43,594 nt of DNA from a virus (Duplodnaviria; Heunggongvirae; Uroviricota; Caudoviricetes): the IMG/VR virus record IMGVR_UViG_2526164599_000004. The stretch is one strand, 5' to 3'. The notes beneath the pieces were generated by a model. It did not search any database and was not told the DNA's origin. It saw only the letters and a list, made by a program, of their open reading frames with translations. The position numbers and the translations under genes are program-made. Shown here piece by piece: positions 1 to 18,716 of this stretch. Each line of letters begins with the position of its first letter. Positions within the stretch are counted from its first letter, which is position 1.

Positions 1-1284
1 TTACTTCTTCGCCTCTGCAACCACTTTACTACCCACGCCGCGGTTATTGTATTCCCACATGCGGTTGTAGTTAGTGTCATTCAGATTGCGCTGTATTTCG
101 TCGTTATCATCTACGCTGCCGGTATTACCCGCAAACGGACGATTAGAGATCACCGCATCGGCCCACGGTTTAGCCGTGTTAAAACCTTCGTTGATGGCGC
201 TATCACGGATCACCACCTGACCGTTGGTATTGGCATCAACATCCAGCGAGCGGCCCAGTTGCGCCACACCATCACCGAAAGCATTGAAACGGCTGTTTAC
301 GGCGAGGAAACCGTAGTAAATGTTGGACAGCGTAGCCGGTGCAAACACATACGCTTCTTGCTGAGTACGTGAGTTCACCACGCGGAATTCGGTGTTATCG
401 AACACCACTGCGCCGCGACCAGAAACGATATCCACATCCCCTTCAATGTAGCTGTTGGTCACCAGCGTACGCGGCTGACGGTTGGTTTCCAGACGGTTCT
501 GCACACCGCTGTTGGTGACAAAGAAGGTGTTCTGACGACCGAGAATGTTAACGTTGTTAATCTGCACCAGGTCACCATCAGTACGCAGTGCCACCGCCGG
601 ATGGTTACCTGCATCTACGCTATCGCCCAGCGTGTTTTCGATGGTCAGATTTTGCAGTTGCAGGCCATTGTTTTGTGACCAGAAGACCGCAGAGCAGAGA
701 ACACCGATACTGTCGCTGCGTTTGCTCTGGCAGCTATCGTACATATACCACGCTGGTTTACCTGGCATATATTTGCCGCGCGGGTTGACGTCGTGACGCC
801 AGTCGGCAGGGCTCATGCCACCATCAAGGGAAAGCCCAATCTTCACATCAATCGGTTTTTCACCTGTACCGTACAGAGTAATTCCACCCGGAGCGGCAGG
901 GACATATACCGTTCCCTGATACTCACCAGGCATCACGGCAATATACTGGCGCTTGTTGGTACGCTTGATAATTGCCGCATCTACCGCCGCCTGAATCGTG
1001 GTATGCGTTACACCTTGAGTGCCCGCCGGGCCGACAACAAAGTCAGGTTGCGCAGGCAGGGTAATCGGGGAAGGATTCCACGCTGCAGCACCTGGTGTCA
1101 GGGATGCAAAATAGTGTTGAGCATCGAAATTCTGCGCTTCTTTTGCCGACAGAATCGGGCGAGAAGAGGTACCAGGCGCGGTTTGATCAGAAGGACGTTG
1201 ATCGGGCGGGGTTGAGCTACAGGCGGTCAGCGTCACGCCAAAAGCCAATGCCAGCGCCAGACGGGAAACTGAAAATGTGTTCAC
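1..1284 (-). CDS. ybhC: Host outer-membrane lipoprotein YbhC (pectinesterase-family)
   Basis: 427-aa ORF with lipoprotein signal (LTAC); recognised as E. coli YbhC, the gene flanking attB-lambda on the gal side. Identity from memory, not search. Confidence 0.8.
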   Translation of the reverse strand: MNTFSVSRLALALAFGVTLTACSSTPPDQRPSDQTAPGTSSRPILSAKEAQNFDAQHYFASLTPGAAAWNPSPITLPAQPDFVVGPAGTQGVTHTTIQAAVDAAIIKRTNKRQYIAVMPGEYQGTVYVPAAPGGITLYGTGEKPIDVKIGLSLDGGMSPADWRHDVNPRGKYMPGKPAWYMYDSCQSKRSDSIGVLCSAVFWSQNNGLQLQNLTIENTLGDSVDAGNHPAVALRTDGDLVQINNVNILGRQNTFFVTNSGVQNRLETNRQPRTLVTNSYIEGDVDIVSGRGAVVFDNTEFRVVNSRTQQEAYVFAPATLSNIYYGFLAVNSRFNAFGDGVAQLGRSLDVDANTNGQVVIRDSAINEGFNTAKPWADAVISNRPFAGNTGSVDDNDEIQRNLNDTNYNRMWEYNNRGVGSKVVAEAKK

Positions 1285-1330
1285 AGGTTGCTCCGGGCTA
1301 TGAAATAGAAAAATGAATCCGTTGAAGCCT

Positions 1331-1345
1331 GCTTTTTTATACTAA
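1331..1345. other. attL: attL core (lambda att common core) with P' arm extending to ~1420
   Basis: Exact 15-bp lambda core GCTTTTTTATACTAA at 1331-1345, followed by P'-arm-like sequence (CAGTCAAAAT repeats) and the int 3' end. Confidence 0.85.
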
Positions 1346-1418
1346 GTTGGCATTATAAAAAAGCATTGCTTATCAATTTGTTGCAACGAACAGGTCACTA
1401 TCAGTCAAAATAAAATCA

Positions 1419-2489
1419 TTATTTGATTTCAATTTTGTCCCACTCCCTGCCTCTGTCATCACGATACTGTGATGCCATGGTGTCCGACTTATGCCCGAGA
1501 AGATGTTGAGCAAATTTATCGCTTATCTGCTTCTCATAGAGTCTTGCAGACAAACTGCGCAACTCGTGAAAGGTTGGCGGATCCCCTTCGAAGGAGAGAC
1601 CTGATGCTTTTCGTGCGCGCATAAAATACCTTGATACTGTGCCGGATGAAAGCGGTTCACGACGAGTAGATGCAATTATGGTTTCTCCGCCAAGAATCTT
1701 TTTGCATTTATCAAGTGTTTCCTTCATTGATATCCCGAGAGCATCAACATGCAATGTTGTTGGGATGGCAATTTTTACGCCTGTTTTGCTTTGCTCGACA
1801 TAAAGATATCCATCTACGATATCAGACCACTTCATTTCGCATAAATCACCAACTCGCTGCCCGGTAACAACAGCCAGTTCCATTGCAAGTCTAAGCCAAC
1901 ATGGTGATGATTCTGCTGCTTGATAAATTTTCAGGTATTCGTCAGCCGTAAGTCTTGATCTCCTTACCTCTGATTTTGCAGCGCGAGTGGCTGCGACCGG
2001 GTTTGTTGTTATATGGCCTTCAGCCATAGCCTCTCGGAATGCATCGCTCAGTGTTGATCTGATTAACTTGGCTGATGCCGCCTTTCCCTCGTCTATGTAT
2101 CCATTGAGCATTGCCGCAATTTCTTTTGTGGTGATGTCTTCAAGTGGAGCATCAGGCAGACCCCTCCTTATTGCTTTAATTTTGCTCATGTAATTTATGA
2201 GTGTCTTCTGCTTGATTCCTCTGCTGGCCAGGATTTTTTCGTAGCGATCAAGCCATGAATGTAACGTAACGGAATTATCACTGTTGATTCTCGCTGTCAG
2301 AGGCTTGTGTTTGTGTCCTGAAAATAACTCAATGTTGGCCTGTATAGCTTCAGTGATTGCGATTCGCCTGTCTCGGCCTAATCCAAACTCTTTACCCGTC
2401 CTTGGGTCCCTGTAGCAGTAATATCCATTGTTTCTTATATAAAGGTTAGGGGGTAAATCCCGGCGCTCATGACTTCGCCTTCTTCCCAT
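1419..2489 (-). CDS. int: Lambda integrase (tyrosine recombinase)
   Basis: 356-aa ORF matching lambda Int as recalled; position next to att core. Confidence 0.95.
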   Translation of the reverse strand: MGRRRSHERRDLPPNLYIRNNGYYCYRDPRTGKEFGLGRDRRIAITEAIQANIELFSGHKHKPLTARINSDNSVTLHSWLDRYEKILASRGIKQKTLINYMSKIKAIRRGLPDAPLEDITTKEIAAMLNGYIDEGKAASAKLIRSTLSDAFREAMAEGHITTNPVAATRAAKSEVRRSRLTADEYLKIYQAAESSPCWLRLAMELAVVTGQRVGDLCEMKWSDIVDGYLYVEQSKTGVKIAIPTTLHVDALGISMKETLDKCKKILGGETIIASTRREPLSSGTVSRYFMRARKASGLSFEGDPPTFHELRSLSARLYEKQISDKFAQHLLGHKSDTMASQYRDDRGREWDKIEIK

Positions 2490-2685
2490 TTCTGATCCTC
2501 TTCAAAAGGCTACCTGTTATTGGTCGATTTAAGTCAACCTTTACCGCTGATTCGTGGAACAGATATTCTCTTCCATCCTTAACCGGAGGAGGGAATATCT
2601 TGCATTCGCGCACCCATCGACGAACTGTTTCAAGGCTTCTTGGGCGTCGCTGGCGAGCGTTCCACTCCTGAAGTGTCAAGTACAT
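2467..2685 (-). CDS. xis: Lambda excisionase
   Basis: 72-aa ORF (MYLTLQEWNARQRRPRSLETVRRW...) matching lambda Xis; overlaps int start as in lambda. Confidence 0.93.
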   Translation of the reverse strand: MYLTLQEWNARQRRPRSLETVRRWVRECKIFPPPVKDGREYLFHESAVKVDLNRPITGSLLKRIRNGKKAKS

Positions 2686-2724
2686 CGCAAAGTCTCCGCA
2701 ATTACACGCAAGAAAAAACCGCCA

Positions 2725-2892
2725 TCAGGCGGCTTGGTGTTCTTTCAGTTCTTCAATTCGAATATTGGTTATGTCTGCATGTGCTATCTGCGCCCATATC
2801 ATCCAGTGGTCATAGCAGTCATTGATGTTCTCTGCTTCGATAACTCTGTTGAATGGTTCTCCATTCCATTCACCTGTGACTCGGAAGTGCAT
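2725..2892 (-). CDS. Small hypothetical protein (lambda orf-55-like)
   Basis: 55-codon ORF (MHFRVTGEWNGEPFNRV...) found by hand translation, below the 60-aa ORF-track cutoff; same size and position as the small ORF after xis in lambda. Confidence 0.45.
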   Translation of the reverse strand: MHFRVTGEWNGEPFNRVIEAENINDCYDHWMIWAQIAHADITNIRIEELKEHQAA

Positions 2893-2974
2893 TTATCATC
2901 TCCATAAAACAAAACTCGCCGTAGCGAGTTCAGATATAATTTCCACCAAAGGCAGTAGTTGCTGATGCTAAGAA

Positions 2975-3403
2975 TTATTCAATATCTATTCCTGTAATAT
3001 CTTTTATCTTTTTCCTTGCAAAGCCTTTTGCTAGTGATTTTGAAACACTTATTAGTGTACTAATTCCCTCATCCTTAAAGTTTGTTTTTATAGTTTGCCA
3101 GACCTCCTTTTGACGCAAGTCAGCAATAAAATCATGCCCTCTTGCTGTCAACCTCAGTGGTACTTCGATCCAACTATATCCAACACCTTCCCCTAACTCG
3201 TTGGACATTATATGACCGAACCCAGGTTTTCCATCAACCCTGACTATTAATTCGTAGTCGCATAATAATCGCATATGGAAAATAAAATTTTGGTCATATC
3301 TATTAAAGCCATTATCCTCTAGTTCACTAAGCATCGTGTCAGGGCCATGAGTTTTTTCGAATGCGATAAGTAGATCTTTTAGATATTGCTGGTCTAATTT
3401 CAT
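2975..3403 (-). CDS. Hypothetical protein, AT-rich accessory gene (142 aa)
   Basis: Clean 142-aa ORF in the variable region after xis where lambda carries ea8.5; clearly AT-rich relative to flanking phage genes; no function recognised. Confidence 0.6.
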   Translation of the reverse strand: MKLDQQYLKDLLIAFEKTHGPDTMLSELEDNGFNRYDQNFIFHMRLLCDYELIVRVDGKPGFGHIMSNELGEGVGYSWIEVPLRLTARGHDFIADLRQKEVWQTIKTNFKDEGISTLISVSKSLAKGFARKKIKDITGIDIE

Positions 3404-3430
3404 TGCCGCCTCCGTGACATGTCACAGAGA

Positions 3431-3769
3431 TTTATATCATTAATTTTGTTTCGTGCCAGCCTTTGGTCACCCAGCATTGTGAGTCACCATTACACGGGCA
3501 TGAATTAACAGGAACTCTCTCGCCGCACTTACCGCAACGTTTTCTGCTGATCGATTTTATACGCCAGCGCACACGTGCATCATCCTGGCGGCTCAGTAAC
3601 GCGATGTACTCACCAAACTCGTAAGGCGCATGCCTGAAGCGGCGCGTGGCTCAGTTACGATCCAGCATTTCAATTTCCTGAGCATCAAGTACAAGCTCCA
3701 GCTTACGCATACCGGATGATGCTTGCTTGGCTCTCTGATCGACTTTGCGCTCTGCTGATGATTTAGCCA
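3431..3769 (-). pseudogene. Small ORF (39 codons) followed in-frame, after one TGA, by 73 more codons with a Cys-rich zinc-finger-like tail
   Basis: Hand translation: MAKSSAERKVDQRAKQASSGMRKLELVLDAQEIEMLDRN, TGA at 3650-3652, then in frame ...RKRCGKCGERVPVNSCPCNGDSQCW... to TAA at 3431-3433; the downstream part has no start codon of its own. Confidence 0.3.
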
Positions 3770-3782
3770 TTCTGCTTTTCCT

Positions 3783-3836
3783 GCATTAGGAGAAAGACAA
3801 TCATGGCGGCGCGGATACTTCCGGTATCTTTTTACT
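3783..3836 (-). repeat. Remnant of a NinX-like gene 3' end (about 50 bp homologous to 19631-19688)
   Basis: Reverse complement reads ...ATCCGCGCCGCCATGATTGTCTTTCTCCTAATGCAGGA..., nearly identical to the 3' end of the gene at 19348-19695; only about 22 codons of frame remain. Confidence 0.6.
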
Positions 3837-3964
3837 CGATATTACCCTTCAATGGCACATACAAGAAGAGAGCCATCAACAGGAGTGAGTGAGGAATCGA
3901 CAACCAGCAACGCTTAATTATCTATAGTGTCGTATTTGCTTCATAAAATATGGCGAATAACACA

Positions 3965-3998
3965 AAGCCCGCAGCAGCTCATTGTGCGGGCTTTTCTT
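3965..3998. terminator. Bidirectional intrinsic terminator hairpin
   Basis: AAGCCCGCA...TGCGGGCTT stem followed by TTTTCTT on plus and TTTGTGTT on minus; sits about 70 bp downstream of the 204-aa minus-strand gene. Confidence 0.5.
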
Positions 3999-4063
3999 AT
4001 ACATACTTCCTAGAGATAATTCTATGGAGGCATTAAATTAATACTGTCATTGGTAATATCATA

Positions 4064-4678
4064 TTATCTAAAAGTCTTTCCACTTTTAACGTCTAGGTAT
4101 ATTCTGTTCGACAACGTCATTCCTCCGCAATATGTGAAATAGATGTTTTTCCCCTTATTGCTTGATGCCATCCACCCTCCGATTTCCTTAAAGTCGCTTT
4201 CCGTGCAGACCCCTTCGTTTATTAACTTCCTAGCTGCCGAAGAAAACTCTTTTTTGTATATACGGTAGTCATCAGATCCTTTGATTAAAGTATCATCTCC
4301 GCTCGCATTTTCAGCAGGATCTGATGGCCTTTCACTGCTAAGATCACTAAGTTTAACCCATTCTGAAAACTTGCCATTGACGATTCCGTTTTTTCTTGTG
4401 CAGGATTTATTACCTTCTTTAATATATTCGCTTTCCCCTCCCACACATGAGGCTGAATATGGCTCAGTTATACGAACCCATTCACCTTTTTTTTCTAGAA
4501 AATCTACGCCTTCCCTGAAAAATAGTTTCCCAGCCACTCCGCATTTACTTGAAGGGCAGGTATGTCTTTCCGTTCGATCAACAACAACCCAAAGTCTTGA
4601 TTCATTTTTTGCCATTGCCGATGGTATTTGAGATGAGACAATTAACGTAAGCCCTAAAATTAGTATTGATTTTTTCAT
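4064..4678 (-). CDS. Secreted cysteine-rich protein of unknown function (204 aa)
   Basis: N-terminal signal peptide (MKKSILILGLTLIVSSQIPSAMA|K), several Cys, AT-rich flanks with own terminator; not a lambda gene I recognise. Confidence 0.6.
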   Translation of the reverse strand: MKKSILILGLTLIVSSQIPSAMAKNESRLWVVVDRTERHTCPSSKCGVAGKLFFREGVDFLEKKGEWVRITEPYSASCVGGESEYIKEGNKSCTRKNGIVNGKFSEWVKLSDLSSERPSDPAENASGDDTLIKGSDDYRIYKKEFSSAARKLINEGVCTESDFKEIGGWMASSNKGKNIYFTYCGGMTLSNRIYLDVKSGKTFR

Positions 4679-4814
4679 TGTAATTTCCTTTTACTTTTTA
4701 CAAAGCGTTTAATCATGGCTGATTATCTTTAAGCGTAGTAACAGCCTTGTGCGAAACATGTTACCAAATCGCCATTTCAGTGTATCCGCAGTTAGGCTGC
4801 CACTTCAAGGATTC

Positions 4815-5228
4815 CTAATTACATGGTACGTAAGCGTAAAATCCCGTTGGTTGTCGGGTAATAACTCTGATCAAATCTCCCTTGTCTTTTGCTCTTACGT
4901 ATGCAGCTCTTGTGTATTCAACCCAGGCCTCCAGTTCAGCAATACGCTTACTTCCATCCGAGATAACACCTTCTACTCACGCTGCTCGTTGAGTTTTGAT
5001 TTTTGCTGTCTCCAGCTCAACACGCAGTTTCCTCACCGTTAGCGCAATATCCTCGTTCTCCTGGTCGCGGCGTTTGATGTACTGCTGGTTTCTTTCCCGT
5101 TCATCCAGCAGTGTCAGCACAATCGATGGTGTTACCAGCTCATGGAAAAGGTCCGCGTCAAATCCCCAGTTGTCATGCATTGCCTGCTCTGCCGCTTCAC
5201 GCAGTGCCTGAGAGTGAATTACGCTCAC
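4815..5228 (-). pseudogene. ea22: ea22-like gene interrupted by an in-frame TGA (83-aa N-terminal ORF 4977-5228 plus 53 in-frame codons)
   Basis: N-terminus MS.I.SQALREAAEQAMHD.WGFDADLFHELVTPSIVL... matches lambda Ea22 as recalled; TGA at 4977-4979, then in-frame EGVISDGSKRIAELE... continuing to TAG at 4815-4817. Confidence 0.5.
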
Positions 5229-5446
5229 TTCGAACCTCTCTGTTTACTGATAAGTTCCAGATCCTCCTGGCAACTTGCACAAGTCCGACAACCCTGAACG
5301 GCCAGGCGTCTTCGTTCATCTATCGGATCGCCACACTCACAACAATGAGTGGCAGATATAGCCTGGTGGTTCAGGCGGCGCATTTTTATTGCTGTGTTGC
5401 GCTGTAATTCTTCAATTTCTGATGCTGAATCAATGATGTCTGCCAT
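5225..5446 (-). CDS. TraR/DksA-family C4 zinc-finger protein
   Basis: 73 aa with CxxC...CxxC motif (CCECGDPIDERRRLAVQGCRTCASC); stop overlaps the ea22-like start. Confidence 0.6.
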   Translation of the reverse strand: MADIIDSASEIEELQRNTAIKMRRLNHQAISATHCCECGDPIDERRRLAVQGCRTCASCQEDLELISKQRGSK

Positions 5447-5544
5447 CTTTCATTAATCCCTGAATTGTTGGTTAATACGCTTGAGGGTGAATGCGAATAA
5501 TAAAAAAGGAGCCTGTAGCTCCCTGATGATTTTGCTTTTCATGT

Positions 5545-5760
5545 TCACCGTTCCTTAAAAACGCCGTTTAACATGCCGATTGCTAGGCTTAAATGAGTCG
5601 GTGTGAATCCCATCAGCGTTACCGTTTCGCGGTGCTTCTTCAGTACGCTACGGCAAATGTCATCGACGTTTTTATCCGGAAACTGCTGTCTGGCTTTTTT
5701 GATTTCAGAATTAGCCTGACGGGCAATGCTGCGAAGGGCGTTTTCCTGCTGAGGTGTCAC
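5545..5760 (-). CDS. Hypothetical protein (71 aa from a GTG start; ORF track gives a 93-aa form starting at 5826)
   Basis: GTG at 5758-5760 overlaps the TGA of the upstream small peptide ORF (GTGA coupling); the ATG at 5826 has no obvious ribosome-binding site. Confidence 0.4.
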   Translation of the reverse strand: MTPQQENALRSIARQANSEIKKARQQFPDKNVDDICRSVLKKHRETVTLMGFTPTHLSLAIGMLNGVFKER

Positions 5761-7944: not shown

Positions 7945-8045
7945 TGTCAGCGCCAATGATATAAGACAGTAATTCACCATTTGGATTGTCCGCTCCACCC
8001 AACATGTTGTTTCCTTAAGGTTCCTACACCACAAAGGGAACACTC

Positions 8046-10012
<1,967 letters not shown>

Positions 10013-10069
10013 TGACCAATAGCGGACATTAAAAATGGCGAAAAACGGCCAATAATCTTGGCGTTGACA

Positions 10070-12769: not shown

Positions 12770-13546
12770 CTAGGCTACCAGAGACTCAATCCAAGAGTCT
12801 CTGGTATGGAATGGCAACACTCGTGCGGTATCATTAAATAGTAGTGATAGTTGCTGTAGCTCAGGTGTTAACCCATCGCTGTCAACTATTACAAATCTAT
12901 TGTTTATGTCAGGAACGACCTGACTTAAGTCAACAATCTTCCCAACTGTTGAGTGGGCAGTATTCCATCCCTTACTGCTGGCAAGGCTTACCGTAAACCC
13001 GCGTTTTGGTGGTATTAGTCGAGACTCATTCCTTAGCGTTAACGGAACAGTAATGTTATGCCCACTAATACCTTTCACTTTTTCCTTTAAGGCTAGTCGC
13101 TTCCCAAGCCCTGCTGATTTTAAGTAACTGATTACACATTTTTCGAACTTATCGTCTTTGACCTCAGCATACCAATCAGCAGTTTGGGCGGATGCAAGAA
13201 TCCCACCACGAATAACATTTGCAGTTACCTGTCCAACGGACGACTCATCTGCCCACGCAGATATCTCTCCAGAATCATTTAATGAAATTCCTTGCGAAGC
13301 GAGTGATGACCTAATCAGATCAATTTTCTTTTTAGTCAGGTGGATGCCGCGTGATTCAATATTCATCAATGTATCGCAGTAGTCTGTAACCCTATACTGA
13401 CCACTCATCTCTTGAACGAATACACTTATCTGCTCACAATCATCGTAGTATGTGAAGGGACTAATAACGCGCAGCAACGTGTCGCTCATTGGGTGGCATT
13501 CAAACCCGAGCTTAGATATGACTGTTGAACACGTTACATTTCCCAT
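12770..13546 (-). CDS. Unknown protein B (258 aa), rexAB-position cassette
   Basis: Clean ORF co-oriented with cI; its ATG lies 13 nt inside the 3' end of the 180-aa gene; no family recognised; no obvious transmembrane helices. Confidence 0.6.
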   Translation of the reverse strand: MGNVTCSTVISKLGFECHPMSDTLLRVISPFTYYDDCEQISVFVQEMSGQYRVTDYCDTLMNIESRGIHLTKKKIDLIRSSLASQGISLNDSGEISAWADESSVGQVTANVIRGGILASAQTADWYAEVKDDKFEKCVISYLKSAGLGKRLALKEKVKGISGHNITVPLTLRNESRLIPPKRGFTVSLASSKGWNTAHSTVGKIVDLSQVVPDINNRFVIVDSDGLTPELQQLSLLFNDTARVLPFHTRDSWIESLVA

Positions 13547-14076
13547 GATAGCTGACCTGATTTATCTTGATTAGGTAAAGGTGGGCTGCCTTCATATATG
13601 ATATTAAGCGCCTCGCAAAAATAATTCCAGTAGCCAAAAAAATCATCTGGCTTGATGTTCGTTTCAAGCTTAAGTGCAATTTCTTCCCCAGCTGATTCGA
13701 AGTACATGTGATAGTGAGGACCTCGAGCCACCTCAACAAAATCTGGATGGTTCACTATAGATTTATTACGGTGTGGCTTGTTATCCGCAGGGTACGGGTC
13801 AAGCGCGTAAATGCGCCTGTCATGAAGAAACATCACAAATGAAATCTTCACTATATCCACCCCTTCAACGATAGGAGGACGCCAGTGAAGCATAAATCTT
13901 ATGCCTGTGATTGGGTTGCCAATTTCATCAAAAGCTTTGAGATCCAATTTAAACCAGATTGGGGTTCGTCCCTCACTTCCGGTCCATGTAACTCCGCTAA
14001 AAGTTACTTTTTTCAAGCGAGTAATAGCTTGGTCAACCTCTTTCTGGGTAGGCTTAAAGTCGCCTTTTTTAGCCAC
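13534..14076 (-). CDS. Unknown protein A (180 aa), rexAB-position cassette
   Basis: Clean ORF 46 bp downstream of the cI stop, same strand; no family recognised. Confidence 0.6.
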   Translation of the reverse strand: MAKKGDFKPTQKEVDQAITRLKKVTFSGVTWTGSEGRTPIWFKLDLKAFDEIGNPITGIRFMLHWRPPIVEGVDIVKISFVMFLHDRRIYALDPYPADNKPHRNKSIVNHPDFVEVARGPHYHMYFESAGEEIALKLETNIKPDDFFGYWNYFCEALNIIYEGSPPLPNQDKSGQLSWEM

Positions 14077-14122: not shown

Positions 14123-14782
14123 TCACCCAAACGTCTCTTCAGGCCACTGACTAGCGATAACTTTCCCCACAACGGAACAACTCTCATTGCATGGGATCAT
14201 TGGGTATTGTGGGTTTAGTGGCTGTAGAAACACCTGACCGCTATCCCTGATCAGTTTCTTGAAGGTAAACTCATCACCACCAAGTCTGGCTATACAGAAA
14301 TCGCCTGGCTCAACAGCCTGCTCAGGGTCAACCAGAATTAACATCCCGTCAGGAAAGCTGGGCTTGGAACCTGTTGGTGCGGTCATTGAGTTACCTTCAA
14401 CCTCAAGCCAGAATGCAGAGTCACTGGCTTTTTTGGTTGTGCTTACCAATCTCTCCGCATCGCCTTTGGTAAAGGTTCTGAGTTCTGGAGAGAACATCCC
14501 AGCCTGAACATGAGAAAAAACAGGGTACTCATATTGTTTTTTAACTGGGGCCGATGAGTATTCGCCAACAGGTGAAAATGTCCCGTCGTGGTTGAATGAT
14601 ATGTTATCAATACCAAGGTATTTAAACACCACACCAATATCACTAAGAGATGGATGACGAGATCCGCGCAACCAGTGTCCAATCCCACCCTGCGTCATAC
14701 CTAGCTCTTCGGCTAACTTCTCTTGAGTTATGCCGAGCTCTTTCATTCTGGATCTAGCCAGTTCATACCATTTCATTTTCAT
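14123..14782 (-). CDS. cI: CI-type repressor, hybrid: novel N-terminal HTH domain plus lambda CI C-terminal domain
   Basis: C-terminal about 135 aa (...[28 protein letters not shown]...[14 protein letters not shown]) matches lambda CI; N-terminal about 85 aa does not; start chosen at MKMKWYEL with AAGGA ribosome-binding site. Confidence 0.85.
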
Positions 14783-14892
14783 GTCCTTATTATTACGCTT
14801 TGTACTGGAACCATCCATGCACAATGTGTATTTTTACTTGTATTCGTAAAGTACATATTGTATTTTTTATTCGTGTTTACTATGGAGGGCAT
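14783..14892. promoter_or_regulatory. OR region with divergent pRM/pR (operator block about 14836-14863)
   Basis: Intergenic between divergent cI and cro; near-palindromic TACA/TGTA elements shared with OL; exact operators and promoter hexamers not resolved. Confidence 0.5.
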
Positions 14893-17825: not shown

Positions 17826-18716
17826 TCAGGCTGCCAGATCATCGTTTCCGATGGAAGCATAATAAGCTTTTTCTGCTTCTGCCGGTGGGATATGGCCCAG
17901 CCTTTCCAGCAATCGTCGATTGTTATACCAGTCCACCCACGTGAGTGTGGCCAGCTCCACTTCTGTCCGGTTTTTCCAGCTCTTACGGTGTATTACCTCC
18001 GCTTTGTAAAGGCCATTGATGCTCTCCGCCATCGCGTTGTCATACGAGTCACCAGTACTTCCTGTTGATGCCAGTAATCCGGCTTCCTTAAGCCGCTGTG
18101 TGTAGGCCAGCGATACATACTGAGAACCTTTATCACTGTGATGGACTGTGCCGGACGGTCGACGGGCCCATAACGCCTGCTCCAGAGCATCCAGCACGAA
18201 TGTCGTTTCCATAGACGATGAGACCCGCCACCCCACGATGTATCCGGCAAACACATCAATGATGAACGCCACATAGACGACCCCCTGCCATGTGCTGACG
18301 TAAGTAAAATCAGCCACCCACAACTGGTCAGGACGTTCTGCCACAAACTGACGGTTTACGCGGTCGCCTGCGGCAACGGCTTTCCGGCTGACGGTAGTGC
18401 GGACCTTTTTACCCCGGAGAACACCGGCAAGTCCCATAACCGCCATGAGGCGCGCCACTGTACATCTGGCTACCCTGATTCCTTCCCGTAACAACTGACG
18501 CCAGACTTTACGCACACCGTATACCTGATGATTCCCATCGTATACGCGCAGTATCTCTTTCTTCAGCCAGTCATCGCGCTGCGCACGGGCACTGCGTTTA
18601 TCAGGATGATGTCGCTGTTGCTGACAGTGGTAATACGTTGACGGGGCAATATGTAGTTCACTGCATACCGGTCCGACCCCGTACAGCTTACGCAGCTTAT
18701 CCAGCAGTGGCATCAC
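17826..18716 (-). CDS. IS629 transposase OrfB
   Basis: 296 aa, integrase catalytic core; recalled as IS629/IS1203 OrfB. Confidence 0.85.

Follow-up and report, generated by a model that had tools for sequence, protein, structure and literature searches.

A stand-alone accessory gene for a predicted exported SH3b-type protein in the exo-xis region of a lambda-type prophage

Lambdoid phages carry morons, single foreign genes of deviant guanine-plus-cytosine (GC) content that are absent from close relatives, such as bor and lom of lambda and the gene of the cor lipoprotein of phi80 and N15. The genes of the lambda exo-xis region (ea8.5, ea22, orf61, orf63 and orf60a) encode small cytoplasmic modulators of the decision between lysis and lysogeny. 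Another group of small exported proteins, T4 Sp (spackle) and the Ivy, PliC/MliC, PliG and LprI families, protects the wall against muralytic enzymes. These inhibitors are often disulfide-bonded, patchily distributed and without a partner gene, and PliC/MliC inhibitors occur as soluble and lipoprotein forms. SH3b domains (PF08239) are found in lysostaphin, phage endolysins and NlpC/P60 proteins. The virus record IMGVR_UViG_2526164599_000004 (43,594 nucleotides, called the window below) holds on its minus strand a gene for a protein of 204 amino acids that can be set beside all of these systems. The anatomy of this gene and its accessory status are well supported. The gene is read here as a moron-type accessory unit, which recombination brought into a lambda prophage at the exo-xis region and whose product guards the cell wall; this reading as a whole is tentative, held with rather less than even confidence, and the protective mechanism is a best guess.

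Like the lambdoid morons, the locus consists of one foreign gene with a deviating GC content (39% in the open reading frame, ORF, against 51% in the whole window), is absent from close relatives and has a terminator, a candidate promoter and a predicted envelope product. It is missing at this position in lambda, differs in composition and ends in its own terminator, and the layout read from the sequence fits a moron. Unlike bor, lom and cor, to which it has no sequence relation, it lies in the early exo-xis region, co-oriented with the leftward promoter pL, and not in the late region. With the lambda exo-xis genes it shares position, orientation and probable read-through from pL, whereas its product is foreign, has two domains and is predicted to be exported.

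The window represents a lambda-type prophage at the attachment site of lambda. Its bases 1-5570 are 99.9% identical to the part of the Escherichia coli FORC_081 chromosome in which int, xis and the 204-residue gene come after ybhC. The gene belongs to a mosaic segment with a GC content of 41% (window, 51%), and the flanks of this segment in the exo-xis region are 97% identical to lambda. An earlier note, made from the letters alone, had placed the gene outside the lambda gene set, and the comparison bears this out, since lambda has ea8.5 and an intact ea22 there. The gene was found in 130-133 of 5,426 complete E. coli genomes (about 2.5%), and the whole block in the same 130 genomes; over 1,000 genomes have the middle of the block at other places. 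Searches with both DNA and protein found the gene in a single one of 50,697 phage records, that of phage Chlobot, so that it is not a common conserved phage protein. The high-identity plasmid copies are lambdoid fragments on large plasmids, one of them on an IncA plasmid with the gene intact.

The ORF begins with ATG (the earlier note had named no strand) and is separated by 298 nucleotides from the stop codon of the truncated ea22 (4977). The ratio of nonsynonymous to synonymous substitution (dN/dS) is 0.085 against the Escherichia fergusonii copy, which is 85% identical, and 0.086 against phage Chlobot, homologues of the protein form 82 clusters, and relatives are found in several phyla. Such low ratios, together with this spread, argue that the ORF is not a product of chance; it is a real gene under strong purifying selection. 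The match to PHROG 8310 is full-length (positions 1-204 of 204, E = 3.6e-136). That group is labelled 'unknown function', and because it has no assigned function, membership says nothing about what the protein does. The RefSeq entry WP_000748284 bears the name 'hypothetical protein', and searches of NCBIfam with the whole protein and with its C-terminal domain gave no match. Nothing was found in the literature on the accession or the PHROG number, and a combined search on superinfection exclusion, SH3 domain, periplasmic, prophage and peptidoglycan returned nothing relevant. An Rfam scan of positions 3400-5300 gave a chance Thr-leader (E = 0.53) as its sole match.

The gene ends in an intrinsic terminator about 70 nucleotides 3' of the stop codon. 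Its stem, AAAGCCCGCAC...GCGGGCTTT at 3964-3994, runs into GTGTTATT on the minus strand and into TTTCTTAT on the plus strand. The folding energy of the hairpin alone is -16.9 kcal/mol, and a 117-nucleotide region around it has a z-score of -2.9 against shuffled sequences. These figures and the presence of tails on both strands argue for a real bidirectional terminator. The E. fergusonii copy ends in a different bidirectional terminator, so that terminators lie 3' of the gene in two independent enterobacterial contexts. That copy is located on an 88-kb plasmid with phage-type genes (NZ_CP099330), with which the window shares the coding sequence and 142 nucleotides of 5' region, and the shared DNA stops at the stop codon of the gene. 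In all contexts examined the gene is flanked by spacers, and an overlap with a neighbour was never seen. The gene described in the earlier note, with a predicted signal peptide, cysteines and a bidirectional terminator, is thus confirmed by the ORF, the leader sequence, the hairpin and dN/dS, and its stand-alone character is supported by the spacers on both sides, the lack of a partner gene, the co-travelling 5' region and the terminators in two contexts.

Promoter-like sites lie 100-160 nucleotides 5' of the gene in three contexts. In the window, the best candidate was found by eye, and both of its hexamers are identical in the E. fergusonii copy, while the spacer between them carries several substitutions. 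The homologue in E. fergusonii (L087) is preceded by TTGACT-18-AAGAAT, with 9 of 12 consensus positions, and the one on a Citrobacter ColE1-type plasmid (L007) by TTGACA-17-TACTAT, with 10 of 12; both sites were called by the scan. A promoter of its own may therefore be proposed for the gene in the window as a weakly supported candidate.

The gene is oriented like int, xis, exo and bet and thus lies within the path of the leftward pL operon, pL being the documented promoter of the exo-xis region (PMC7093339). Because of this co-orientation the gene may be expressed only after induction. A consistent alternative is that it is an early gene of the pL operon, silent in the lysogen and reached only by N-antiterminated read-through after infection or induction, and that it acts on the phage cycle itself, perhaps in remodelling the wall ahead of lysis or in keeping a second phage out of a cell already infected. 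The position between exo and xis/int agrees with this alternative, as do the carriage of the gene by a viable phage, Chlobot, and the consensus scan, which called no sigma-70 promoter on the coding strand of the gene. N-modified polymerase would pass the terminator. Against this stand the strong terminator immediately 3' of the gene, the transfer of 142 nucleotides of 5' region into a non-lambdoid replicon, and the homologues on islands and on the ColE1-type plasmid, which have promoter-like sites of their own and no pL-like operon. The gene is also intact in prophages that lack the pL region or have an insertion sequence between pL and the gene. In the window an IS21-family element (7945-10069) sits between the two, and the prophage of FORC_081 lacks the whole stretch from bet to ren. 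Both retain an intact ORF, and a role independent of pL is thereby mildly favoured. Expression from pL alone is accordingly judged unlikely. The monocistronic layout claimed in the earlier note goes further than these findings: the terminator and the co-travelling 5' region speak for it, whereas the gene is embedded in a co-oriented operon and its best promoter candidate reaches only 8 of 12 consensus positions.

The N-terminus of the protein reads MKK-SILILGLTLIVSS-QIPSAMA, with KNES after the predicted cut, and n, h and c regions with an AxA cleavage motif can be recognized by eye. The features expected of a Sec signal peptide, a positively charged n-region, an h-region with some 10-15 hydrophobic residues and small side chains at -3 and -1 of the cleavage site, are all present. 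A signal peptide, lipobox or membrane anchor is found at the N-terminus of all 42 aligned relatives, with leaders of the signal-peptidase-I type in some and of the lipoprotein type in others. In the AlphaFold model residues 1-23 are unstructured and the predicted local distance difference test (pLDDT) is about 46-50 over residues 1-20, as expected for a part outside the fold. The sequence itself and the conservation of the leader across the family predict that the protein is exported.

The protein has six cysteines (41, 46, 78, 93, 158 and 184; 2.9% of its residues), each of them kept in at least 90% of the family, so that the label 'cysteine-rich' is generous, yet the cysteines are meaningful. 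C158 and C184 are invariant and are the sole pair retained in relatives that consist of the C-terminal domain only. C41/C46 and C78/C93 are lost jointly in the two most divergent relatives, one of which has the C78-C93 stretch deleted. This pattern of conservation and loss fits the pairings C41-C46, C78-C93 and C158-C184, and three disulfides are inferred from it.

The AlphaFold model, built from 42 relatives, has a mean pLDDT of 90.4 and shows two domains joined by a short RPxDPA linker, the structure prediction proposed in the earlier note having thus returned an SH3b fold followed by a C-terminal domain. The N-terminal domain has the SH3-like beta-barrel fold; C41 and C46 belong to a CPSSKC loop, and C78 and C93 close an inserted excursion. 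The Pfam family SH3_3 (PF08239; gathering score 27 bits) is reached by several distant members of the family (L084, 31.7 bits; L040, 32.5; P0135, 32.8; P0161, 27.8), and precomputed PF08239 matches exist for several homologues. In comparison with the SH3b domains of lysostaphin, phage endolysins and NlpC/P60 proteins, the barrel in the window adds two cysteine pairs and the excursion (residues 78-93), and its partner is a small unclassified domain where those proteins have a hydrolase.

The C-terminal domain, modelled separately with a pLDDT of 85.6, has the order alpha-alpha-beta-beta-beta. Its motifs are SDD[YF], GGW.KS, YFTYCGG and N[RK]IYL, and S135, D136, D137, D162, W169, S172, Y180, Y183, N191 and Y194 are invariant or near-invariant. 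These polar and aromatic residues resemble a ligand pocket, which their conservation suggests but which is read from the alignment. No structural neighbour of the domain was found among viral structures, and no match among Pfam and PDB sequences. The sole 'significant' PDB matches of the family profiles were de novo designed TIM barrels; the score sums fourfold repeats, no single stretch passes, and the matches were rejected as spurious. Of the 535 clusters (50% identity) collected by a profile search with the domain, 403 have E <= 1e-10. The domain stands at the C-terminus of every member, either alone in an exported protein of about 100 amino acids, behind an SH3b domain in proteins of about 200-250 amino acids, or in longer proteins, the longest of which add SH3b, ankyrin repeats or HIRAN only. 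Fusions to enzymes were never seen, and this, together with the conserved polar and aromatic residues, suggests a conserved ligand. The domain is a widespread exported module, unnamed and without a Pfam entry or solved structure, which is mildly notable.

It has to be considered whether the C-terminal domain could be a small enzyme that SH3b targets to peptidoglycan, where it modifies or cleaves a wall component. The combination of SH3b targeting with an 'effector' domain is the architecture of endolysins and NlpC/P60 hydrolases, and the invariant S135 and S172 and the near-invariant D136, D137 and D162 could serve such a function. The domain is only about 75 residues long, however, without a fold or sequence match to a hydrolase or transferase, and it also exists alone as an exported protein of about 100 amino acids. 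Moreover, a wall hydrolase constitutively exported from a prophage would endanger the host, and an enzymatic role is regarded as very improbable.

A parallel may be offered by T4 Sp and the Ivy, PliC/MliC, PliG and LprI inhibitors, which share with the window protein a small size, a patchy distribution, the lack of a partner gene and the predicted export, and are often disulfide-bonded, as is predicted for it. These inhibitors come in soluble and lipoprotein forms, as does the family studied here. The analogy is based on this split, as in PliC/MliC, and on phage ev099 (NC_049953; L096 1230-1928), which has at the ea8.5 position a 232-residue LprI-family gene with a signal peptide, annotated as lysozyme inhibitor. 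The ev099 gene further indicates that genes of exported proteins are swapped at this position. In neither sequence nor fold was the 204-residue protein found to resemble Ivy, PliC/MliC, PliG, LprI or T4 Sp; it belongs to none of these families, and the claim is therefore limited to saying that it may work like them.

The clade nearest to the window protein shares 57-69% identity with it, and nearly all of its members have exactly 204 amino acids. At every locus with neighbours examined, the clade of the window protein (57-100% identity) was located on or beside mobile elements. In small Pseudomonas islands the homologue is the first gene after a tyrosine integrase, an Aeromonas prophage has it between a Q-type antiterminator and a holin, beside a restriction-modification system, and a Citrobacter ColE1-type plasmid of 5.3 kb carries another, whose neighbours gave no informative PHROG match. 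Among the stand-alone C-terminal-domain genes, those of Agrobacterium and Rhizobium lie among phage-like genes, and that of Marinobacter is at an island edge with PIN, NERD and antitoxin-like genes. When the ORFs within 5 kb of about 76 loci were clustered, no conserved partner gene emerged across lineages; only lineage-specific synteny was obtained, with housekeeping genes in Vibrio and integrases in Pseudomonas. The genomic context describes one gene that is self-sufficient and often mobile, and says no more than that. The Pseudomonas islands (L003 6402-12411; L088-L093) have a fixed order of integrase, 204-residue homologue and ORFs of about 236, 105, 130 and 337 amino acids. Apart from a weak transcriptional-regulator match on the ORF of about 236 amino acids, these ORFs gave no informative Pfam or PHROG match, and the islands are an uncharacterised element type.

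Outside this clade the setting changes, and the family may consist of ordinary envelope-maintenance proteins, peptidoglycan-binding scaffolds or modulators of the cell's own wall enzymes, that mobile elements have acquired. The benefit to the host would then be one of general fitness, stress tolerance or colonisation, as with lambda Bor and Lom, and not one against phages or toxins. On chromosomes the family has a wide distribution (alpha-, beta-, gamma- and epsilon-proteobacteria, Acidobacteria and Vampirovibrionales), with housekeeping genes beside it (pheT/metW; in Vibrio nap, secDF and the gene of a GGDEF-EAL protein). The lack of a partner gene fits such a role, and the strong residue conservation in the C-terminal domain points to a universal ligand. 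It is countered by the association of the window's clade with mobile elements at all examined loci, and by a patchy occurrence (2.5% of E. coli genomes only) that would be atypical of a housekeeping role. Envelope maintenance is a realistic possibility, if on balance a somewhat doubtful one.

Several observations weigh against the guarding of the wall by an accessory unit, beginning with the empty promoter scan and the possible restriction of expression to the time after induction. The SH3_3 match of the window protein itself (16.1 bits, E = 0.013, residues 40-72), its only one in Pfam, is below the cut-off, the defence-protein models of PADLOC-DB v2 gave no match to it at E <= 0.1, and all members of the family are named 'hypothetical' or 'exported hypothetical'. 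The wider family is mostly chromosomal with housekeeping neighbours, and a tyrosine recombinase lies within 8 kb in only 7 of 77 genome loci; the chromosomal setting favours a general envelope role over a dedicated anti-phage one. The earlier note had placed the gene where lambdoid phages often carry host-interaction cargo. Accessory cargo is a reasonable description, whereas host interaction is a guess: none of the proteins in this family has an assigned function, and the slot in the lambda exo-xis region is known for modulators of lysis and lysogeny, not for genes of host interaction.

If the product does guard the wall, the following steps may be envisaged. The mature protein of 20 kDa would fold in the periplasm with its three predicted disulfides, and the SH3b domain would dock it on peptidoglycan. 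The ligand of the C-terminal domain would be a conserved component of the envelope or a wall-degrading enzyme, the latter possibly bound at its active site. In this way the wall of the lysogen might be protected from the muralytic device with which a superinfecting phage enters, or from an external hydrolase of the lysozyme or toxin type. The terminator would shield xis and int from transcription in the prophage state. A bolder version holds that the C-terminal domain founds a new class of periplasmic wall guards, as a new-fold, peptidoglycan-anchored inhibitor of muralytic enzymes or phage genome entry, which prophages, integrative islands and plasmids would disseminate through the gamma-proteobacteria as an exclusion or immunity factor made by one gene; this is quite improbable.

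Table 1. Features of the 204-residue gene and of the segment that carries it (positions in the window)
Feature	Position	Strand	Description and basis
Coding sequence of the predicted exported 204-residue protein	4064..4678 (stop codon included)	minus	ORF list; PHROG 8310; WP_000748284 ('hypothetical protein')
Ribosome-binding site	4686..4690	minus	AAGGA, 7 nucleotides 5' of ATG; direct sequence reading
Predicted signal peptide	4610..4678	minus	Residues 1-23 (MKKSILILGLTLIVSSQIPSAMA), predicted cleavage after AMA; direct sequence reading
Bacterial SH3b-type beta-barrel domain	4343..4597	minus	About residues 28-112
Unclassified C-terminal alpha/beta domain	4067..4294	minus	About residues 129-204
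Candidate sigma-70 promoter	4779..4808	minus	TTGAAG-N18-TACACT, 8 of 12 consensus positions, weak; by eye, sub-threshold in scan
Intrinsic terminator	3956..3994	minus	Hairpin with U-rich tail; A-run before the stem makes it bidirectional
Unit moving between replicons	4062..4820	minus	142 nucleotides of 5' region and coding sequence; blastn, 85% identity to E. fergusonii plasmid NZ_CP099330
Mosaic segment, 1,989 bp	2941..4929		Replaces lambda 29334-30093 (ea8.5 and 3' end of ea22); lambda comparison

Other features of the replacement segment may be described briefly. It also carries a DUF2513 gene (2975-3403), a Cys-rich ORF of 46 amino acids and an S24/UmuD-like remnant. A DUF2513 gene is likewise found directly 3' of the stand-alone C-terminal-domain homologue in Marinobacter litoralis (L099 5401-5763); only two independent lineages among the loci fetched have this link, and it was taken as a coincidence of two kinds of mobile-element cargo. 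The S24/UmuD-like remnant (3808-3909), 3' of the gene, is 73.5% identical to part of an intact S24 peptidase gene (L087 2498-2599), which lies 5' of the homologue on the E. fergusonii plasmid, so that the two modules occur in opposite order. At the edge of the segment, window positions 2936-2940 are where many lambdoid, Shiga toxin (Stx) and P22-like phages lose homology, a recurrent mosaic junction, and the record of HK022 labels the matching stretch as the tL4 terminator. In E. coli NZ_CM173849.1, IS1 elements interrupt the replacement segment, one of them inside a 901-bp region around the gene.

Further observations concern the rest of the prophage. Relative to Chlobot, the IS21-family element (istA 8046-9218, istB 9215-10012, plus strand) is inserted between gam and kil; as it lies in the pL operon, between pL and the 204-residue gene, the prophage is probably impaired. 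Two IS3-family transposase ORFs on the minus strand (17826-18716 and 23121-24011) are of equal length and have identical Pfam match profiles. Between them is the gene of a Gram-negative porin of 360 amino acids (21059-22141, minus strand), an arrangement that resembles a composite transposon. A DUF1828 protein and a weakly DUF6978-like protein are encoded on the minus strand at 12770-13546 and 13534-14076, their genes overlapping by a few bases. The pair adjoins a cI-like repressor (14123-14824) at the position held by rexA/rexB in lambda, and because of this position it may be a candidate exclusion or defence pair.

The 204-residue gene is typical prophage cargo, and the databases already list its product as a hypothetical protein. 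The gene is in itself no surprise, but it is well delimited and useful as a screening candidate. As a swap site for exported proteins, the ea8.5 position belongs to a region that has been studied mostly for cytoplasmic modulators of lysis and lysogeny. Should the protein guard the wall, the list of what prophages give their hosts would gain a single-gene protection factor acting in the periplasm, and the domain family, with its roughly 535 clusters, would acquire a role.

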